Shown one piece after another: positions 2,860-43,266 of a stretch of DNA of 64,000 nt. A program made the translations under genes and the position numbers. Below the pieces are notes generated by a model, which had not been told where the DNA came from, ran no database searches, and was given only the letters and a program-made list of their open reading frames with translations. The stretch is from Oscillospiraceae bacterium. Lineage in GTDB: Bacteria > Bacillota > Clostridia > Oscillospirales > Ruminococcaceae. Location of the stretch: NCBI GenBank assembly GCA_051881775.1, contig JBJEQN010000103.1:14604-78603 (forward strand), given 5' to 3'. Numbering within the stretch: position 1 is the stretch's first letter; each line of letters opens with the position of its first letter.

Positions 2860-3131
2860 ATGTATACCTCACAGCGGTTTTGATTTCATAAAAGTATACC
2901 TATATTTTAACATAAACGCAGGATTTGTCAATGCTGTCAAAAGAAAAAATGTTATATTGGCAAACTTGTGCTTTTTATTTTAATGTTGGAAAAATGTCGA
3001 ATCTGTTTGCTTTTTATTGGAATAAATGTCATATCAGCGGTTATTTATGTTGGAAAAATGACAAAAATCCTTTTAAAACTGTTGCATAAATGCCAAAAAC
3101 GTGCTATACTAAGTGTGGGGAGGTATTTGAT

Positions 3132-4484
3132 ATGCTGCACAGAAAGATTGAACGTGAAATTGTTGACTGGCTGAACAAGGATAGTAAGGCGCTGCTTATT
3201 GACGGTGCAAGACAGGTCGGTAAGACATATATTATAAGAAGTACGCTTGCGCAGCAAGGCTGTGACTATGCTGAATTTAATCTGCTGCACACACCGGAGC
3301 TTGTGACCTTGCTTGAAAAATGCAGCAGTGTGGAAGATATGATAACGAGCCTGTCCTTGTTTGCCGATAAGCCGTTTGTAAGGGGCAGGACAGTTTTGTT
3401 CTTTGACGAGATACAGGAGTTTAAGGAGCTTGCTACAAAAATCAAGTTTTGGGTAGACGAGGGTTCGTTCCGCTATGTGTTCAGCGGTTCACTGCTCGGC
3501 GTGGAACTGAGGAGCATAAAATCTGCACCTGTCGGTTATTTGAAAACCTTGACAATGTATCCTATGGACTTTGAGGAATTTTTGCAGATATATAATTTTA
3601 CCGACAAACTCAGAGAATCGCTGTACAATTCCTTTGTTGACAGAACACCTGTAAATGAAGCTGTGCATGAGCGAATGATGCGTATTTTTAATATGTATCT
3701 GCTTGTAGGCGGTATGCCTGCAGCTGTTGAACGGTTCCGAGAAACTCATAATTTAGAAGATGTGCTATCTGAACACAATGATATAGTTACACAGTATAAA
3801 AGGGACTTTACGCATTATGAGCAGGACGCTAAAAAAATCTATCTGACACAGATATATGACCTTATTCCTGCTGAATTGAATAAGCCAAATAAACGTTTTA
3901 ATTTTTCTGATCTGAAACAGGGAATGCGTTATGAACGCAGCGAGGAAAATTTTTTATGGCTGGCTCAGGCAGGCGTGGCATTGCCTGTGTATAATGTGTC
4001 AGCGCCTGAGATACCGTTGATGCTTAACGAAAAAAGCAGCTTGTTCAAGCTGTTTATGTCCGATGTAGGAATGTTGACCTCAGTTTACGGCAGAGCGGCA
4101 AAAATGGAGATATTGTCCGGCAGCGGCAATACAAATAACGGTGCTGTCTATGAAAATGTTGTTGCACAGGAATTGAAGGCTCACGGCTTCAAGCTGTATT
4201 ATTATAACAGCAAGAAGTTCGGCGAACTGGATCTTGTTGTGGAGTATAACGGTAAAGTTCTGCCTATAGAGGTAAAGAGCGGAAAAGATTACCGCCGTCA
4301 TTCCGCATTAAGCAATGTGATGTATGAGAGCGATTACCGTATAGACGAAGCCTTTGTATTGTCGGATTATAATGTAGATGTTCAGGGCAAACTGGTATAT
4401 TATCCTGTTTATATGCTTATGTTTATAAATAACGATGAATTAAGGTTCCCTCAGATAGAAATTGACGATCTTTCTGATATTTGA
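3132..4484 (+). CDS. AAA+ ATPase with C-terminal DUF4143 domain
   Basis: Walker A (GARQVGKT), Walker B (LFFDEIQ) and a DUF4143-like C-terminal half. ATG 3132 has GGGAGG 8 nt upstream; the track ORF starts at 3090. Confidence 0.8.
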   Translation: MLHRKIEREIVDWLNKDSKALLIDGARQVGKTYIIRSTLAQQGCDYAEFNLLHTPELVTLLEKCSSVEDMITSLSLFADKPFVRGRTVLFFDEIQEFKELATKIKFWVDEGSFRYVFSGSLLGVELRSIKSAPVGYLKTLTMYPMDFEEFLQIYNFTDKLRESLYNSFVDRTPVNEAVHERMMRIFNMYLLVGGMPAAVERFRETHNLEDVLSEHNDIVTQYKRDFTHYEQDAKKIYLTQIYDLIPAELNKPNKRFNFSDLKQGMRYERSEENFLWLAQAGVALPVYNVSAPEIPLMLNEKSSLFKLFMSDVGMLTSVYGRAAKMEILSGSGNTNNGAVYENVVAQELKAHGFKLYYYNSKKFGELDLVVEYNGKVLPIEVKSGKDYRRHSALSNVMYESDYRIDEAFVLSDYNVDVQGKLVYYPVYMLMFINNDELRFPQIEIDDLSDI

Positions 4485-9224: not shown

Positions 9225-9252
9225 TTCACTCTCCACTCTTCACACTCCAAAC
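9225..9252. repeat. single heptad-periodic array (CU-rich on the + strand) just upstream of the thyA SD
   Basis: TTCACTC TCCACTC TTCACAC TCCAAAC. Its reverse complement matches the GGAGAGT/GAAGAGT arrays at 29.8, 30.5, 39.8 and 42.0 kb. Confidence 0.7.
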
Positions 9253-9276
9253 TTAATTCACGGAGGTTTATTTTAA

Positions 9277-29764: not shown

Positions 29765-29772
29765 TTTGAACA

Positions 29773-29836
29773 AGTTTGAAGTGTGGAGAGTGAAGAGTGG
29801 AGTTAAACTTTGATTTTATACTCTCCAAATTTAAAA
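29773..29836. repeat. heptad-periodic array, truncated copy
   Basis: Positions 29773-29805 (AGTTTGAAGTGTGGAGAGTGAAGAGTGGAGTTA) are identical to 30472-30504. The tail TTTGAT..CTCTCC..AAATT matches the 30541-30581 tail, with internal deletions. Confidence 0.75.
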
Positions 29837-29848
29837 GACAATTTAGTG

Positions 29849-29959
29849 AAGGTTTCTATAAATAAAGAATTGTCTGATTGATTAAGCTAACGAAAAAAAT
29901 CACTTTTGATACTTTTAGGGTGTCAAAAGTGATTTTTGTTTTTGTCGGAAGTTGACTTG
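29849..29959 (+). repeat. 111-bp direct repeat copy 1, containing a terminator hairpin (29898-29934 plus T-run) and a TTGACT -35 box
   Basis: Hand alignment to 30354-30463 shows 3 substitutions and one 1-nt indel. The hairpin is AATCACTTTTGA...TCAAAAGTGATT. Confidence 0.85.
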
Positions 29960-29981
29960 TTAGGCGGCGGTGTGATATAAT
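29952..29981 (+). promoter_or_regulatory. candidate promoter of the 93-codon ORF
   Basis: TTGACT (29952-29957), 18-nt spacer, TGaTATAAT extended -10 (29973-29981). Confidence 0.45.
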
Positions 29982-30028
29982 TAAACTATAATAAATAGGG
30001 ATTTTTGTACTTTAAGTTGGTGATTTAA

Positions 30029-30310
30029 ATGGAAAACAATGGAATGGACTTTAGAGAAACTTTACTAAATCAAATAAAAGAATATCTTGATGGTAAAATA
30101 ACAAAAGAAGAATATTATGCAATGGCTGAACCTTTTTATACCCAATACGCTCATAATTGCAATAACACATTGTTCCTTGAATATTTTTTAGCTACAATAC
30201 CAGATGCTTGTTTATTTTATATTGACGAACCCAACTTCACATCTGAAAGTAATGATGAAATGTTTTACAAAACGTTAAGTGAAGCATATATAAATTTACA
30301 GAAACTTTAA
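30029..30310 (+). CDS. hypothetical 93-aa protein; AT-rich orphan, possibly a small helical immunity-type protein
   Basis: ORF with its own promoter-like sequence and a downstream terminator. G+C is visibly far below the flanks. No secure family assignment. Confidence 0.5.
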   Translation: MENNGMDFRETLLNQIKEYLDGKITKEEYYAMAEPFYTQYAHNCNNTLFLEYFLATIPDACLFYIDEPNFTSESNDEMFYKTLSEAYINLQKL

Positions 30311-30353
30311 AGATATTTTTGAGTTGATTTGATACACATATTCCAATTTGGCA

Positions 30354-30463
30354 AAGGTTTCTATGAATAAAGAATTGGCTGATTGATTAAGCTAACGAAA
30401 AAATCACTTTTGATACTTTTAGGGTGTCAAAAGTGATTTTTATTTTTGTCGGAAGTTGACTTG
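30354..30463 (+). repeat. direct repeat copy 2, with terminator hairpin 30402-30438 plus T-run
   Basis: See copy 1. Confidence 0.85.
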
Positions 30464-30471
30464 CTGTAATG

Positions 30472-30581
30472 AGTTTGAAGTGTGGAGAGTGAAGAGTGGA
30501 GTTATAATTTTAACTTCACTCCCAACTCTTCACACTTCACTCTTTGATAATTCCACTCTCCACTTTCCACTTTCCAAATTC
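30472..30581. repeat. heptad-periodic inverted-repeat element, full copy
   Basis: Purine arm TGAAGTG TGGAGAG TGAAGAG TGGAGTT (30476-30503), inverted arm TAACTTC ACTCCCA ACTCTTC ACACTTC (30511-30538), then TTCCACT CTCCACT TTCCACT TTCCAAA (30551-30578). Confidence 0.8.
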
Positions 30582-35768: not shown

Positions 35769-35814
35769 AATGCGGAATTAGGAATTCGGAATGCGGAATT
35801 AATGGCGGATTCCG
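35769..35814. repeat. heptad array, GGAATKC dialect, left arm
   Basis: ATGCGGA ATTAGGA ATTCGGA ATGCGGA ATTAATG. Positions 35783-35799 are the perfect reverse complement of 35933-35949. Confidence 0.8.
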
Positions 35815-35917: not shown

Positions 35918-35949
35918 AATTCCGCATTCCGCATTCCGCATTCCGAATT
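35918..35949. repeat. heptad array, right (inverted) arm, overlapping the fucI stop codon
   Basis: (ATTCCGC)x3 ATTCCGA ATT. Confidence 0.8.
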
Positions 35950-37742: not shown

Positions 37743-37845
37743 AAAGTGAAAAGTTGAAAGTTGAAAGTGGAATTTGCGGAAGTTTGAAATGTTAAGAGTG
37801 TATTTTTTCAATAATTCCGAATTCCGCATTCCTAATTCCTAATTA
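37743..37845. repeat. heptad-periodic element between fucK and fucI (GAAAGTT and GGAATTC dialects)
   Basis: AAGTGAA AAGTTGA AAGTTGA AAGTGGA ... then ATTCCGA ATTCCGC ATTCCTA ATTCCTA. The last units overlap the final fucK codons and stop codon. GGAATTTGCGGAA (37769-37781) can pair with TTCCGCATTCC (37822-37832). Confidence 0.8.
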
Positions 37846-39756: not shown

Positions 39757-39905
39757 AATTTAAAGTGTGGAGTGTGAAGAGTGTAGAGTGGAGTTTTTCA
39801 ATTTGGAAAGTTGAAAGTTGAAAGTAGAATTTTTTTGATCAATAAATCTCCGTCTTTGAAGCAGAAATTATAACTTCACACTTCACTCTTCACACTTCAA
39901 ACTCT
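39757..39905. repeat. heptad-periodic inverted-repeat element between the nitroreductase gene and fucU
   Basis: AAAGTGT GGAGTGT GAAGAGT GTAGAGT GGAGTTT (39762-39796), GGAAAGT TGAAAGT TGAAAGT (39805-39825), and the inverted arm TAACTTC ACACTTC ACTCTTC ACACTTC (39871-39898). The perfect 12-bp core is 39772-39783 / 39884-39895. Confidence 0.85.
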
Positions 39906-39908
39906 GAT

Positions 39909-40840: not shown

Positions 40841-41989
40841 TCAAAGGAGAGACTGGTAAAGCTCCTTGATCTCTGCAACGGAAGTGTCTCTGGGATTTCC
40901 GGGACGGCAAGCGTCATCGTAAGCGGACTGTGAAAGGAAGTCAAGATCTTCAGGCTTAACAATGTCCTTAAGGTCTGCAGGGATTCCTACATCCTGTGAA
41001 AGCTGCTTAACAGCGTCAATTGCAGCCTTTCTGTATTCTTCCTGTGTCATATCGTCAACACCCTTAACGCCCATTGCTCTTGCGATCTCACGGTACTTTT
41101 CACCTGTTGCCGGAGCGTTGTACTCCATAACTGTAGGAAGGATAATAGCATTTGCAACGCCGTGAGGTGTGTCATACAGAGCGCCGAGAGGGTGAGCCAT
41201 TGAGTGAACGATGCCAAGACCAACGTTGGAGAAGCCCATACCTGCAACATACTGACCGAGAGCCATATCTGTTCTGCCTTCCTTGGTGTTTTCAACTGCA
41301 CCTCTAAGGCTTCTGGCAATTATCTCGATAGCCTTAAGATGGAACATATCGGAAAGCTCCCAAGCGCCCTTTGTTATGTAGCCTTCGATAGCGTGGGTAA
41401 GAGCGTCCATACCTGTTGCAGCGGTCAGACCCTTGGGCATAGAGGACATCATGTCGGGGTCAACGAAAGCAACAACGGGAATGTCGTGGGGGTCAACGCA
41501 AACCATTTTACGGTTCTTTTCTGCGTCGGTAATAACGTAGTTGATAGTAACTTCTGCTGCTGTACCTGCTGTTGTGGGAACGGCAAGAATGGGAACGCTC
41601 TTGTTCTTTGTATCTGCAACGCCTTCAAGGCTTCTTACATCAGCAAATTCGGGGTTAGCAATGATAATGCCGATAGCCTTTGCAGTATCCATAGAAGAAC
41701 CGCCGCCGATAGCGATAAGATAATCAGCTTCCGCAGCCTTGAAAGCAGCAACGCCGGACTGTACGTTTTCAATTGTAGGGTTAGGCTTGATCTCGGAATA
41801 AAGAGTATAAGCAAGACCTGCGCCGTCCAGAACGTCTGTTACCTTCTTTGTTACGCCGAACTTGATAAGGTCGGGGTCGGAGCATACAAGAGCCTTTTTG
41901 AAGCCTCTGTTCTTAGCTTCATCTGCAATAGCTGCAATAGCGCCTGCACCGTGATAAGATGTTTCGTTGAGGATAAATCTGTTTGCCAT
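40841..41989 (-). CDS. fucO: lactaldehyde reductase (iron-containing alcohol dehydrogenase)
   Basis: 382 aa with GGGSSMDTAK and His metal ligands. The N-terminus MANRFILNETSYHGAGAI is typical of FucO. Confidence 0.9.
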   Translation of the reverse strand: MANRFILNETSYHGAGAIAAIADEAKNRGFKKALVCSDPDLIKFGVTKKVTDVLDGAGLAYTLYSEIKPNPTIENVQSGVAAFKAAEADYLIAIGGGSSMDTAKAIGIIIANPEFADVRSLEGVADTKNKSVPILAVPTTAGTAAEVTINYVITDAEKNRKMVCVDPHDIPVVAFVDPDMMSSMPKGLTAATGMDALTHAIEGYITKGAWELSDMFHLKAIEIIARSLRGAVENTKEGRTDMALGQYVAGMGFSNVGLGIVHSMAHPLGALYDTPHGVANAIILPTVMEYNAPATGEKYREIARAMGVKGVDDMTQEEYRKAAIDAVKQLSQDVGIPADLKDIVKPEDLDFLSQSAYDDACRPGNPRDTSVAEIKELYQSLL

Positions 41990-42012
41990 AGTAAAAACAC
42001 TCCTTTATTTTA

Positions 42013-42069
42013 GTTTGGAGAGTGAAGAGTTAAGAGTGAAGTTTTTAACACTCTGCTTTTCACTTTTCC
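42013..42069. repeat. heptad array forming the fucO-proximal arm around the four-helix-bundle gene
   Basis: TTTGGAG AGTGAAG AGTTAAG AGTGAAG TTTTT, then AACACTCTGCTTTTCACTTTTCC. Confidence 0.85.
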
Positions 42070-42440
42070 TAAATATTTTTGATGTTATTTGCAGATTTCA
42101 GCGTTCTTGTTGAAGCTGATAACATTCGTCGTATTTCTTCACAGTCTGAATAAATACTGCAATATAATTGTTCACTTAGATAGCCTGTTTCATATAAAAG
42201 TTCAAGCCAATATTTTGTTTCGTTGCATTCTTTAAGTGCGATATAAAGTTTAAAGGTAAAGTCTTTTTTACTGATTGAACATTCTGCTTCTGCTAAATTT
42301 GCACCTATACTTGTTCCACTTCGTAAAACTTGTTTTGATAAAACGTATTCATTTTTTTCAGAACAAAGATATTTGTACATATTAATGATACGAATTGCAA
42401 ATTTTTTACTTTTATATTTTGCTGAATTATCATCTATCAA
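42069..42440 (-). CDS. four-helix-bundle protein (TIGR02436 / 23S rRNA intervening-sequence protein family)
   Basis: LSKQVLRSGTSIGANLAEAECSISKKDFTFKLYIALKECNETKYWLELL is the family signature. TTG start with GGAG 7 nt upstream. About one-third G+C, against about one-half in the flanking genes. Confidence 0.85.
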   Translation of the reverse strand: MIDDNSAKYKSKKFAIRIINMYKYLCSEKNEYVLSKQVLRSGTSIGANLAEAECSISKKDFTFKLYIALKECNETKYWLELLYETGYLSEQLYCSIYSDCEEIRRMLSASTRTLKSANNIKNI

Positions 42441-42443
42441 TTT

Positions 42444-42480
42444 AAAACTCCACTCTTCACTCTTAACACTTCACACTTTT
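42444..42480. repeat. heptad array forming the fucA-proximal (inverted) arm
   Basis: AAAACTC CACTCTT CACTCTT AACACTT CACACTT. Positions 42455-42467 are the perfect reverse complement of 42029-42041. Confidence 0.85.
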
Positions 42481-42482
42481 GA

Positions 42483-43172
42483 TTATTCGTTTCCGTAAGG
42501 GTATTTCTTGTAACCGGGGTGTTTGCCGGTGACTTTGTAATTTTCACGCATAGAGCAGAGACGGTCAATGTTTTCACGGGAAATTTCTCTTTCACCGCCG
42601 AGCAGATGAGCGGTAAGGGAAATTTTTGCGAAAAGCTCAAGAGTTTCCATACGGTAGTAAGCCGTAAGCAGGTCTGCACCTACCGTAAGCGCACCGTGGT
42701 TCTGCAGAAGCATAACATCGTGTTCCTGCAAATAAGGCGTGATTGCTTCGGGAACTTCATAGGTGGAGGGGGTGCCGTAAGGCGTAACGGGAACGCTTCC
42801 CACTGCAATTACCGCTTCTATCATGGTGTATCCGTCAAGAGCCTTGTTTGCAACGGCATATCCCGTAGCCGTGGGAGGGTGAGCGTGAACAACACCGCCT
42901 ACATCGGGGCGTTCCTGATAGCAGCGCAGGTGCATTTTGATCTCGGAAGAGGGACGGTAATCGCCATTTGCTTCGATGACCTCGCCCTTTCCATTGATCT
43001 TAACGATTTTTTCGGGAGTGATAAAGCTTTTGCTTATTCCCGTAGGGGTCGCAAGATATGTATCATCGTCCAGCTTGACGGAAACGTTTCCATCATTAGC
43101 GGCGACCCAGCCAAGCTGCCACATTTTATGGCAGACATCGCATATCTGATCCTTGATTTCCTGTTCGTTCAT
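42483..43172 (-). CDS. fucA: L-fuculose-phosphate aldolase (class II aldolase)
   Basis: Class II aldolase motifs (GNVSV, VVHAHPP His ligands). The start is MNEQEIKD at 43172. Confidence 0.9.
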   Translation of the reverse strand: MNEQEIKDQICDVCHKMWQLGWVAANDGNVSVKLDDDTYLATPTGISKSFITPEKIVKINGKGEVIEANGDYRPSSEIKMHLRCYQERPDVGGVVHAHPPTATGYAVANKALDGYTMIEAVIAVGSVPVTPYGTPSTYEVPEAITPYLQEHDVMLLQNHGALTVGADLLTAYYRMETLELFAKISLTAHLLGGEREISRENIDRLCSMRENYKVTGKHPGYKKYPYGNE

Positions 43173-43237
43173 TGGAATAACCTCATTTCTTGAAACAACC
43201 GGCATTTCGGCTTGTCCGAAAGCTGATTTATGTTTAT

Positions 43238-43266
43238 ATTATACAACAATTGATTAAAAATGTCTA
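43238..43266 (-). promoter_or_regulatory. candidate promoter of the fucose operon
   Basis: Minus strand: TAGACA (43266-43261), 17 nt, TATAAT (43243-43238). Confidence 0.45.

Follow-up and report, generated by a model that had tools for sequence, protein, structure and literature searches.

A four-helix-bundle gene between heptad arms in a fucose-type operon: a probable mRNA counterpart of rRNA intervening sequences

The 64,000-nt stretch of Oscillospiraceae bacterium DNA analysed here (contig JBJEQN010000103.1, positions 14,604 to 78,603; hereafter the window) carries, between a class II aldolase gene and the lactaldehyde reductase gene fucO, an AT-rich gene for a small four-helix-bundle protein of the PF05635/TIGR02436 family, enclosed by two inverted arrays of tandem heptads. 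We regard this module, with fair though incomplete confidence, as a promoterless cassette of the intervening sequence (IVS) type lodged in an operon mRNA, with arms that would form an RNase III-type stem. A preliminary description of the same DNA, made from its letters alone, had likewise read the module as IVS-like, and the interpretation is supported by the recurrence of the design in homologous loci of many phyla, where the heptads of the two arms change together from one genome to another. The arms, which that description treated as parts of an IVS module, do have this character, but the gene does not have them to itself: they belong to a repeat of about 35 nt, copies of which are scattered elsewhere with no such gene between them.

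Anatomy of the module and its protein

The module belongs to a fucose-type string of minus-strand genes that runs, in operon order, from a promoter-like site through the aldolase gene, the 123-codon open reading frame (ORF) of the cassette, fucO, a small ORF, a nitroreductase gene and fucU to an FGGY kinase gene. Its components and immediate neighbours are the following.

43238-43266, minus strand: promoter-like site upstream of the aldolase gene, TAGACA-17-TATAAT, 11/12 (consensus match only)
42483-43205, minus strand: class II aldolase gene ('fucA'), with its TAA stop at 42485-42483, about 5 nt ahead of the 5' arm
42443-42478, minus strand: upstream (5') arm, purine-rich, four heptads plus pairing bases on either side
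42448-42451, minus strand: Shine-Dalgarno sequence GGAG of the PF05635 gene, within the 5' arm, with the TTG start 7 nt further on
42069-42440, minus strand: four-helix-bundle protein gene (PF05635/TIGR02436), 123 codons, TTG start, G+C 0.28
42011-42046, minus strand: downstream (3') arm, pyrimidine-rich in the operon sense, the reverse complement of four heptads
40841-41989, minus strand: lactaldehyde reductase gene fucO (NF007911, 694 bits against a cut-off of 537)

The extent, TTG start and family of the ORF agree with those first proposed, and the GGAG was likewise found inside the upstream arm, at 42451-42448. The earlier placement between fucA and fucO holds for fucO, while the other neighbour is confirmed as a class II aldolase only; it scores under the NCBIfam FucA equivalog cut-offs and is called fucA purely from its context, that is from fucU, the FGGY kinase gene and fucO in the same gene string. 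Read in the operon sense, the heptads of the 5' arm are GTGTGAA GTGTTAA GAGTGAA GAGTGGA (42476-42449); those of the 3' arm, in plus-strand letters, are GTTTGGA GAGTGAA GAGTTAA GAGTGAA (42013-42040), and the fucO ribosome-binding site AAGGAG (42005-42000) lies directly beyond them. The G+C content is 0.275-0.31 in the module against 0.45-0.54 in its neighbours, and the contrast initially noted between genes was reproduced (0.28 for the PF05635 gene, 0.49 and 0.48 for the flanking genes). In a consensus scan of the operon strand, the best match other than the aldolase promoter-like site reaches 9/12 between that site and fucO, and matches inside the module are weak, at shuffle level. A tblastn search of the window returned a single PF05635 gene and no second copy, and an Rfam scan of the window gave no match, the flanks of the module being protein-coding genes.

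Complementarity between 42020-42041 and 42455-42476 covers 20 of the 22 positions and includes a perfect core of 13 bp, exactly as first aligned by hand, and a repeat search of the window returned the inverted arm match as 23 nt at 91% or 37 nt at 81%. The predicted stem between the arms comprises 29 pairs of 36 (-32.1 kcal/mol). Its advantage over shuffled sequences, anticipated in the preliminary description, was found both for the arm RNA duplex (z -3.7; 0/40 shuffles equal) and for the fold of the 491-nt module (z -2.98; 0/100 shuffles as good), in which the stem encloses the ORF in the minimum-free-energy and the centroid structures alike and is predicted to sequester the GGAG of the PF05635 gene. 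Since G+C-rich coding controls yield strong energies, raw duplex energies of loci and random positions were uninformative, and z-scores against each sequence's own shuffles were used together with ungapped complementarity. By the latter measure the window arms score 17, compared with 10 for the 99th percentile of random-position controls. Period-7 arrays number 11 in the window, compared with 0.35 in shuffles, and no arrays of period 5, 6 or 8 were found in its 64 kb.

The ORF product matches PF05635 (E 5.7e-30, 104.1 bits against a cut-off of 33.8), its only Pfam match, and TIGR02436 (E 4.9e-32, 110.4 bits against a cut-off of 24). Its closest solved relative is BT_0352 (PDB 2RLD, E 5.9e-35). 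An AlphaFold2 (AF2) model predicts four helices (predicted local distance difference test, pLDDT, 89.8), and Foldseek template-modelling (TM) scores of this model are 0.85-0.97 to 2RLD, about 0.78-0.85 to 2GSC (Xcc0516) and 0.73-0.83 to 4DWL, the accessory protein bAvd, which bears out the Avd-like fold suggested earlier. All three deposited structures in this comparison contain five chains. Positions R40, S44, N48 and E51 form an RxxxSxxxNxxE motif that is invariant or nearly so in the homologue alignment and is part of the family motif GxxRxxxSxxxNxxE (PMC3936711), the leading G of which is replaced by Q37 here. The PADLOC and PHROGs libraries gave no match of the protein to a known defence or phage family.

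Recurrence across phyla and kinship with rRNA intervening sequences

A scan of one genome per species returned at least 598 close relatives, the best 80 of which, 50-67% identical to the query, were analysed; they come from Firmicutes, Bacteroidota, Proteobacteria, Verrucomicrobiota, Lentisphaerota, Spirochaetota, Cyanobacteria and others, and the 78 loci with full flanks entered the arm statistics. Inverted arrays had been expected around other family members, and period-7 arrays indeed stand upstream of the gene in 65/78 loci, downstream in 64/78 and on both sides in 57/78, as against 2.5% of background windows of the same loci. Seven is the best period in 71/78 loci on each side, and the median arm length is 32 nt upstream and 31 nt downstream. 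While the heptad itself varies by genome, with 50 distinct units in 57 loci (GGAGTTA, AATGCAG, TGAACAT and GATTACA among them), the upstream unit and the reverse complement of its downstream partner agree exactly in 27 loci and with one mismatched base in 18. Between loci only 0.6% of unit pairs are identical, and the mean distance is 0.81 within loci versus 2.98 across them. This unit-concordance test stands in for a covariance model, which is unsuitable because the pairing registers of the arms vary and allow no column-wise alignment across genomes. Ungapped complementarity of the flanks gave the same picture, with a median of 20 versus 7 in random-position controls and 82% of loci above the control 99th percentile.

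The design is also polar and embedded in operons. The upstream arm is the purine-richer one in 46 loci and the poorer one in 7; its end precedes the start codon by a median of 27 nt, and it commonly contains GGAG or AGGA-like units. In 65/66 loci the gene is AT-richer than its surroundings. Both neighbouring genes are co-oriented with the PF05635 gene in 51/68 loci, and the preceding stop codon is a median of 69 nt away. The contexts include the mod-res pair of type III restriction-modification (R-M) systems, accB-accC, cmr3-cmr2 (PMC3936711) and the leaders of tRNA genes. On viral contigs, about 13/19 PF05635 copies have heptad arms of this design.

Several of these contexts deserve separate mention. 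An identical PF05635 protein occurs on >100 contigs, always between the methyltransferase and restriction subunits of a type III R-M system and with varying upstream neighbours (L098-L107, gene at 2501-2863). At locus L052 (2040-2612), the cassette has a consensus promoter on one side and a tRNA-Leu(tag) gene on the other, and a duplicated 29-nt stretch of the tRNA 5' half, ending in the anticodon loop, stands directly upstream of the 5' arm; this duplicate may be a footprint of cassette entry. Cassettes also lie directly upstream of tRNA genes in L025, L061 and L054. In metagenome-assembled genomes of Acutalibacteraceae, Bacteroides and Porphyromonadaceae (L005, L009, L012), the cassette occupies the same conserved gene junction, between an upstream gene ending in ...GLDDFELICFL and a downstream gene starting with MFGLP or MLGLP, with differing heptad units.

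The closest parallel is found in the IVSs of 23S rRNA in Coxiella burnetii, Leptospira and Brucella, which hold a PF05635 gene in their loop as the window module does. In Coxiella, AGAAGA and three tandem GACAGAT heptamers precede the S23p ORF, and the ends of the IVS form a 28-bp stem (Warrier et al. 2016, PMC4990558). RNase III cuts this IVS in vitro where the first repeat begins, the cleavage site having been mapped by RACE (rapid cDNA-end amplification); cleavage takes off the Shine-Dalgarno sequence, and the ORF is decaying, its protein apparently not being made (PMC4990558). Both systems thus have terminal inverted repeats giving a stem of about 28-30 bp round an S23p ORF, purine-rich tandem heptamers upstream of that ORF (GACAGAT three times in Coxiella, GTGTGAA-type units four times in the window) and a Shine-Dalgarno sequence inside the stem. 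In both, too, the gene is in sense within the host transcript and lacks a promoter of its own, which for the window is a result of the consensus scan. The host transcript differs, being 23S rRNA (helix 45, 25 or 9) for the IVSs and the aldolase-fucO operon for the window module. So does the fate of the ORF, which in the window lineage evolves under a ratio of non-synonymous to synonymous substitutions (dN/dS) of 0.05-0.10, unlike the decaying and seemingly untranslated ORF of Coxiella. Cleavage by RNase III is demonstrated for the IVS and would be expected by analogy for the window module. Given the shared heptads, stem and S23p ORF, the window module is, as far as sequence comparison can tell, the structural homologue of a bona fide IVS, with an mRNA as its location.

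A second connection leads to published intergenic heptamers. In Xanthomonas and Dyella, a gene of the Xcc0516 type, whose product barely matches the profile of the window subfamily (E 0.09), lies between accB and accC with GGGAATC-type heptads upstream and their complement downstream. These arms are exactly the GGGAATC repeat reported from intergenic regions of Xanthomonas, which has 70 convergent pairs in X. campestris and a GGGGAYT counterpart in Nostoc (Rehm et al. 2015, PMC4692102). Similarly, the Nostocales cassette copies L062 and L074 carry the TAACTGA unit described from Beggiatoaceae, Cyanobacteria and Bacteroidetes, for which a translational role was proposed from arrays ending by start codons (MacGregor 2015, PMC4679880). 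Like the arms studied here, the published heptamers are tandem, lie in spacers of co-oriented genes and often form convergent inverted pairs; G-quadruplex or translational roles have been proposed for them (PMC4692102, PMC4679880). A term search of these two papers found no mention of the PF05635 family. In Xanthomonas and Dyella, moreover, the accC start codon adjoins the pyrimidine-rich 3' arm and has no recognisable Shine-Dalgarno sequence (L108, 3330-3375; L132, 1881-1916); accC translation may depend on processing or unfolding of that arm.

Arm copies without the gene and the history of the junction

The arm sequence recurs at five further sites of the window that have no PF05635 gene.

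39758-39906, minus strand: E1, gene-less arm pair (arms 39875-39904 and 39763-39792) between fucU and the nitroreductase gene
30466-30580, plus strand: E2, gene-less tight hairpin with a short loop (arms 30471-30500 and 30515-30542)
29772-29811, plus strand: E3, solo arm, 95% identical to the arm at 30472-30510
9225-9254, minus strand: E4, solo arm directly upstream of a gene start
37743-37802, plus strand: E5, related heptad array of the GAAAGTT/GAGTGTA type in the spacer after the FGGY kinase gene

When aligned in register, nine copies of the arm from six sites define an element of about 35 nt with the consensus AAGTTTGAAGTGTGAAGAGTGAAGAGTGRAGTTATAA. All nine contain exactly four heptads, unlike a variable microsatellite. 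The gene-less pairs, hairpins and solo arms are 87-95% identical to the arms of the PF05635 gene. E1, with a spacer of about 80 nt, is predicted to fold at -41.6 kcal/mol (z -5.1) and E2, which has an additional pyrimidine-rich array at 30552-30576, at -42.6 kcal/mol (z -6.8). Heptad arrays away from the gene are not peculiar to the window: a further 72 heptad arrays were counted in 457 kb of related loci, often as inverted pairs and often sharing the unit of the local gene's arms, while 34.8 kb from relatives lacking the cassette contained none.

Other repeats accompany these copies. The region 29772-30576 is bracketed by heptad-arm copies (29773-29811 and 30472-30510) and contains a 93-codon AT-rich ORF (30029-30310) with no Pfam or PHROG match and no significant PADLOC match. 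On either side of this ORF stands one of two direct repeats, each about 125 nt long (29839-29959 and 30344-30463; 92-98% identical) and with a terminator-like hairpin, and the region may represent a second kind of cargo between heptad arms. The window also has a second heptad 'dialect', GGAATKC (GGAATTA/GGAATGC; complement ATTCCGC), seen in an inverted pair at 35774-35799 and 35919-35949, about 120 nt apart between convergent genes, and in an array at 37813-37844 after the kinase gene. Several heptad types therefore coexist in one genome. The arms of the orthologous cassette at L097 are of the GGAATTA/GGAAAGT type.

At the aldolase-fucO junction itself, an exact look-up of the aldolase retrieved ten same-species contigs, all of which contain the module (10/10), whereas an equivalent look-up of the fucO product returned no record; the module, present with the identical aldolase on ten independent contigs, is no assembly artefact. 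Two of them carry variants, an AAA-to-TAA nonsense change at codon 13 of the cassette gene (L090, near 1425) and a Gly-to-Glu change in the invariant RSGTS motif of its protein (L081, near 3890), which show occasional decay despite overall purifying selection. The nearest relatives of the protein (85, 78, 76 and about 72% identity) are all encoded at the aldolase-fucO junction of related genomes. In these orthologous operons (L135/L136, L137, L139, L097) the gene was found with arms, never armless, and its divergence parallels that of the flanking genes. The dN/dS of 0.05-0.10 given above was obtained with saturated dS, and the G+C content stays at 0.28-0.35 across the series. Over the same lineages the GAGTGAA type of heptad gives way to GAGGAGT/GGAGTGT and then to GGAAAGT/GGAATTA, and a predicted stem of -23 to -67 kcal/mol is kept in all five, in one of them lengthened by non-heptad complementarity. 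In L137 an extra gene-less heptad hairpin, consisting of a purine-rich arm and its complement, is nested between the cassette stop codon and the 3' arm (2863-3014).

No clean empty aldolase-fucO junction was found among the same-species contigs and the relatives examined. The relatives at 93% (L091, L092) lack fucO at that position. The one at 86% (L094) has a 188-residue, AT-rich membrane-protein gene (3210-3776) between fucA and fucO, with no flanking heptads, and in the one at 83% (L140) the gene order differs. A 123-residue AT-rich ORF between fucK and fucI of L140 (4457-4828), considered as a candidate relative, proved unrelated and is likewise not flanked by heptads. Inspection of the window and of the orthologous junctions revealed no convincing target-site duplication, the arm boundaries being fuzzy and the check not systematic. 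The filled same-species contigs, the divergence parallel to that of the neighbours, the low dN/dS and the retained stem together show that the cassette is old in this lineage, vertically inherited and under purifying selection. The earlier suggestion of a mobile module consequently holds on long time scales only; at this site inheritance has been vertical and no empty site was found.

Proposed transcript processing and competing explanations

The reading that we favour can be put as follows. The cassette fills the exact gap between the aldolase stop codon and the fucO ribosome-binding site and would be co-transcribed with both genes, and its product would be a pentamer-forming four-helix bundle (PF05635). 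In the polycistronic transcript, pairing of the arms would give a stem, about 30 bp long, that shuts off the ORF and buries its Shine-Dalgarno sequence. By homology to the IVSs of Coxiella, Leptospira and Salmonella, this stem would most likely be a substrate of RNase III, and cleavage would release the cassette RNA and part the aldolase message from the fucO message. As cleavage would separate the host messages, the insertion should cost the operon little. IVS-type 'hitch-hiker' cassettes of this kind would find their niches at transcribed non-coding sites such as operon spacers, tRNA leaders and rRNA helices. Co-transcription and any effect on fucO expression are, like the cleavage, inferred.

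RNase III cleavage of the mRNA-embedded copies is presumed from IVS homology, and some observations weigh against this reading. About 15-25% of the loci have no detectable arms, and in the cyanobacterial copy from Nostochopsis (L062, 2900-3400) the flanking TAACTGA arrays are direct rather than inverted. Among the arm mismatches, sense-strand G.U pairs are no more frequent than A.C (50 versus 67, p 0.14), so that the signature of RNA-specific selection is absent and pairing could be kept at the DNA level. RNA processing explains neither the gene-less amplification of identical arms nor the strong purifying selection on the protein. Processing and protein expression may even be in conflict, given that cleavage in Coxiella strips the Shine-Dalgarno sequence and the protein is seemingly not made.

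The missing G.U excess, the amplification of gene-less arms and the conservation of the protein make a mechanism acting on DNA a serious rival, which may coexist with a role in RNA. In REP/RAYT systems (repetitive extragenic palindromic, REP, sequences with REP-associated tyrosine transposases, RAYTs), a single-copy gene is flanked by inverted, palindrome-forming repeats that recur in intergenic spacers, singly or as hairpin doublets, and the RAYT is an HUH/Y1 transposase of the IS200/IS605-like type. REP elements and their hairpin-forming doublets, REPINs, were reportedly linked to RAYT genes by Nunvar et al. 2010 and Bertels & Rainey 2011. The window gene, too, stands between inverted copies of a repeat that is scattered through the intergenic DNA of its genome. 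Unlike REP sequences, though, the window repeats are built of tandem heptads, and the enclosed gene encodes a small helical bundle instead of an HUH/Y1 transposase. As regards insertion sequence (IS) elements, inverted termini are present at the module and a transposase is absent. Under this rival, which we consider possible but rather unlikely, the module would be a REPIN-like element or one resembling a miniature inverted-repeat transposable element (MITE), its arms being terminal inverted repeats or single-stranded DNA hairpins recognised by a trans-acting factor. That factor could be the four-helix-bundle protein, with gene-bearing and gene-less copies as autonomous and non-autonomous forms and the RNA stem as an incidental property.

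Much of what is described above is consistent with it: the nine register-aligned copies of a defined four-heptad sequence of about 35 nt, the close identity of gene-less copies to the gene's own arms, the arrays that share the local arm unit in related loci and are missing from the cassette-less relatives, the absence of a sense-strand G.U bias, the cassettes on viral contigs and the duplicated tRNA 5' half beside the cassette at tRNA-Leu. The protein, however, is a helical bundle of some 120 residues with no nuclease or recombinase motif, and its solved relatives are scaffolds that bind nucleic acid or reverse transcriptase. It is 50-67% identical across phyla while the heptads change completely, which makes sequence-specific recognition of the arms by the protein unlikely. 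Neither filled/empty polymorphism nor target-site duplication was seen (the junctions being inspected, not systematically searched), and the cassette has been stable at fucA-fucO over about 15% aldolase divergence and at accB-accC over Xanthomonas and Dyella. Finally, the strict polarity of gene and arms and the orientation shared with the host operons speak for a constraint at the level of the transcript.

A second rival, to which we attach little probability, keeps the arms in RNA but dispenses with endonucleolytic excision. Here the arms would be cis-regulatory, binding S1, a cold-shock protein, CsrA or the pentameric protein itself, or acting as REP-like stabilisers, and would set both how far the cassette gene is translated and how stable the messages on either side are. 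The position of the upstream arm, which ends at a median distance of 27 nt ahead of the start codon and often has GGAG or AGGA-like units, suits such a role, as do the Shine-Dalgarno sequence concealed in the predicted stem, the translational role that MacGregor proposed for TAACTGA heptamers ending beside start codons (PMC4679880) and the accC start that abuts the 3' arm with no Shine-Dalgarno sequence in Xanthomonas and Dyella. Yet the heptad sequence varies between genomes, making a conserved sequence-specific binder unlikely, and what is conserved is the complementarity of the two arms, which a single-stranded binding site would not need. In the sole relative studied experimentally, moreover, the stem is cleaved (PMC4990558).

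An origin of the arrays by chance, or as a by-product of slippage in AT-rich spacers, finds some backing in the over-representation of heptameric simple sequence repeats (SSRs) in many bacterial genomes, for which polymerase slippage was proposed (PMC4692102), but is hardly credible here: the arrays flank the gene in >80% of loci against 2.5% of background windows, the arms are reverse-complementary within and not between loci, four units are fixed in nine of nine window copies, and periods 5, 6 and 8 are absent from the window, so that unit concordance, complementarity controls and period counts exclude it statistically. Least probable of all, to the point of being negligible, is that the gene encodes an Avd-type subunit of a diversity-generating retroelement (DGR), for although the protein shares the four-helix bundle and Pfam family of the DGR accessory protein bAvd (4DWL, TM 0.73-0.83; 8UBE), its neighbours within about 5 kb are the aldolase, fucO, SNF transporter, UvrD helicase, nitroreductase, fucU and kinase genes, and neither an adjacent reverse transcriptase nor a template/variable repeat pair is present in the window or at the orthologous loci.

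The IVS-type cassette in an operon mRNA thus remains our preferred account. The PF05635 gene family, the rRNA IVSs and the heptameric intergenic repeats were already known separately. What appears to be new is a general plan of the cassette in which the heptad arms covary, the occurrence of this plan within protein-coding operons of different phyla and the identity of its arms with the published Xanthomonas and cyanobacterial repeats. In the searchable literature, which leaves subscription papers and database family notes outside its scope, the description of the Coxiella IVS was the only link found between PF05635, S23p or 'four helix bundle protein' and heptamers.

We further advance, tentatively and without expecting it to prove right, the idea that PF05635 genes and intergenic heptamers are two halves of one system, in which the cassette is the 'autonomous' form, the gene-less hairpins are derivatives or targets, and the pentamer acts in trans on heptad stems. 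Were this true, the system would span GGGAATC in Xanthomonas, TAACTGA and short tandemly repeated repetitive (STRR) sequences in cyanobacteria and Beggiatoaceae, GACAGAT in the Coxiella IVS and the GAGTGAA type found here. The heptad stems would be acted on as RNA or as hairpin DNA, in a relationship like that of REPIN and RAYT with an entirely different protein, and the rRNA IVS would be the special case of a cassette landing in rRNA.

For the family as a whole, one design, a heptad arm, a gene and a complementary heptad arm, extends from Firmicutes to Xanthomonas and the Coxiella IVS. It ties together three puzzles hitherto treated apart, namely the nature and spread of the S23p ORFs, the presence of thousands of 'four helix bundle protein' genes inside operons as unrelated as R-M, cas, acc and fuc, and the excess of intergenic heptamers. 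The 23S_rRNA_IVP genes have been reported as 'associated' with cas operons (PMC3936711; PMC10910872); this association, like the mod-res location, is more simply explained by promiscuous insertion into operon spacers, and PF05635 genes should not be read as functional partners of the CRISPR or R-M operons that they interrupt. The favoured reading also predicts RNase III processing sites within many operons, and Xanthomonas campestris, Bacteroides thetaiotaomicron and Segatella copri are tractable carriers in which the protein and its heptad stems could be tested.

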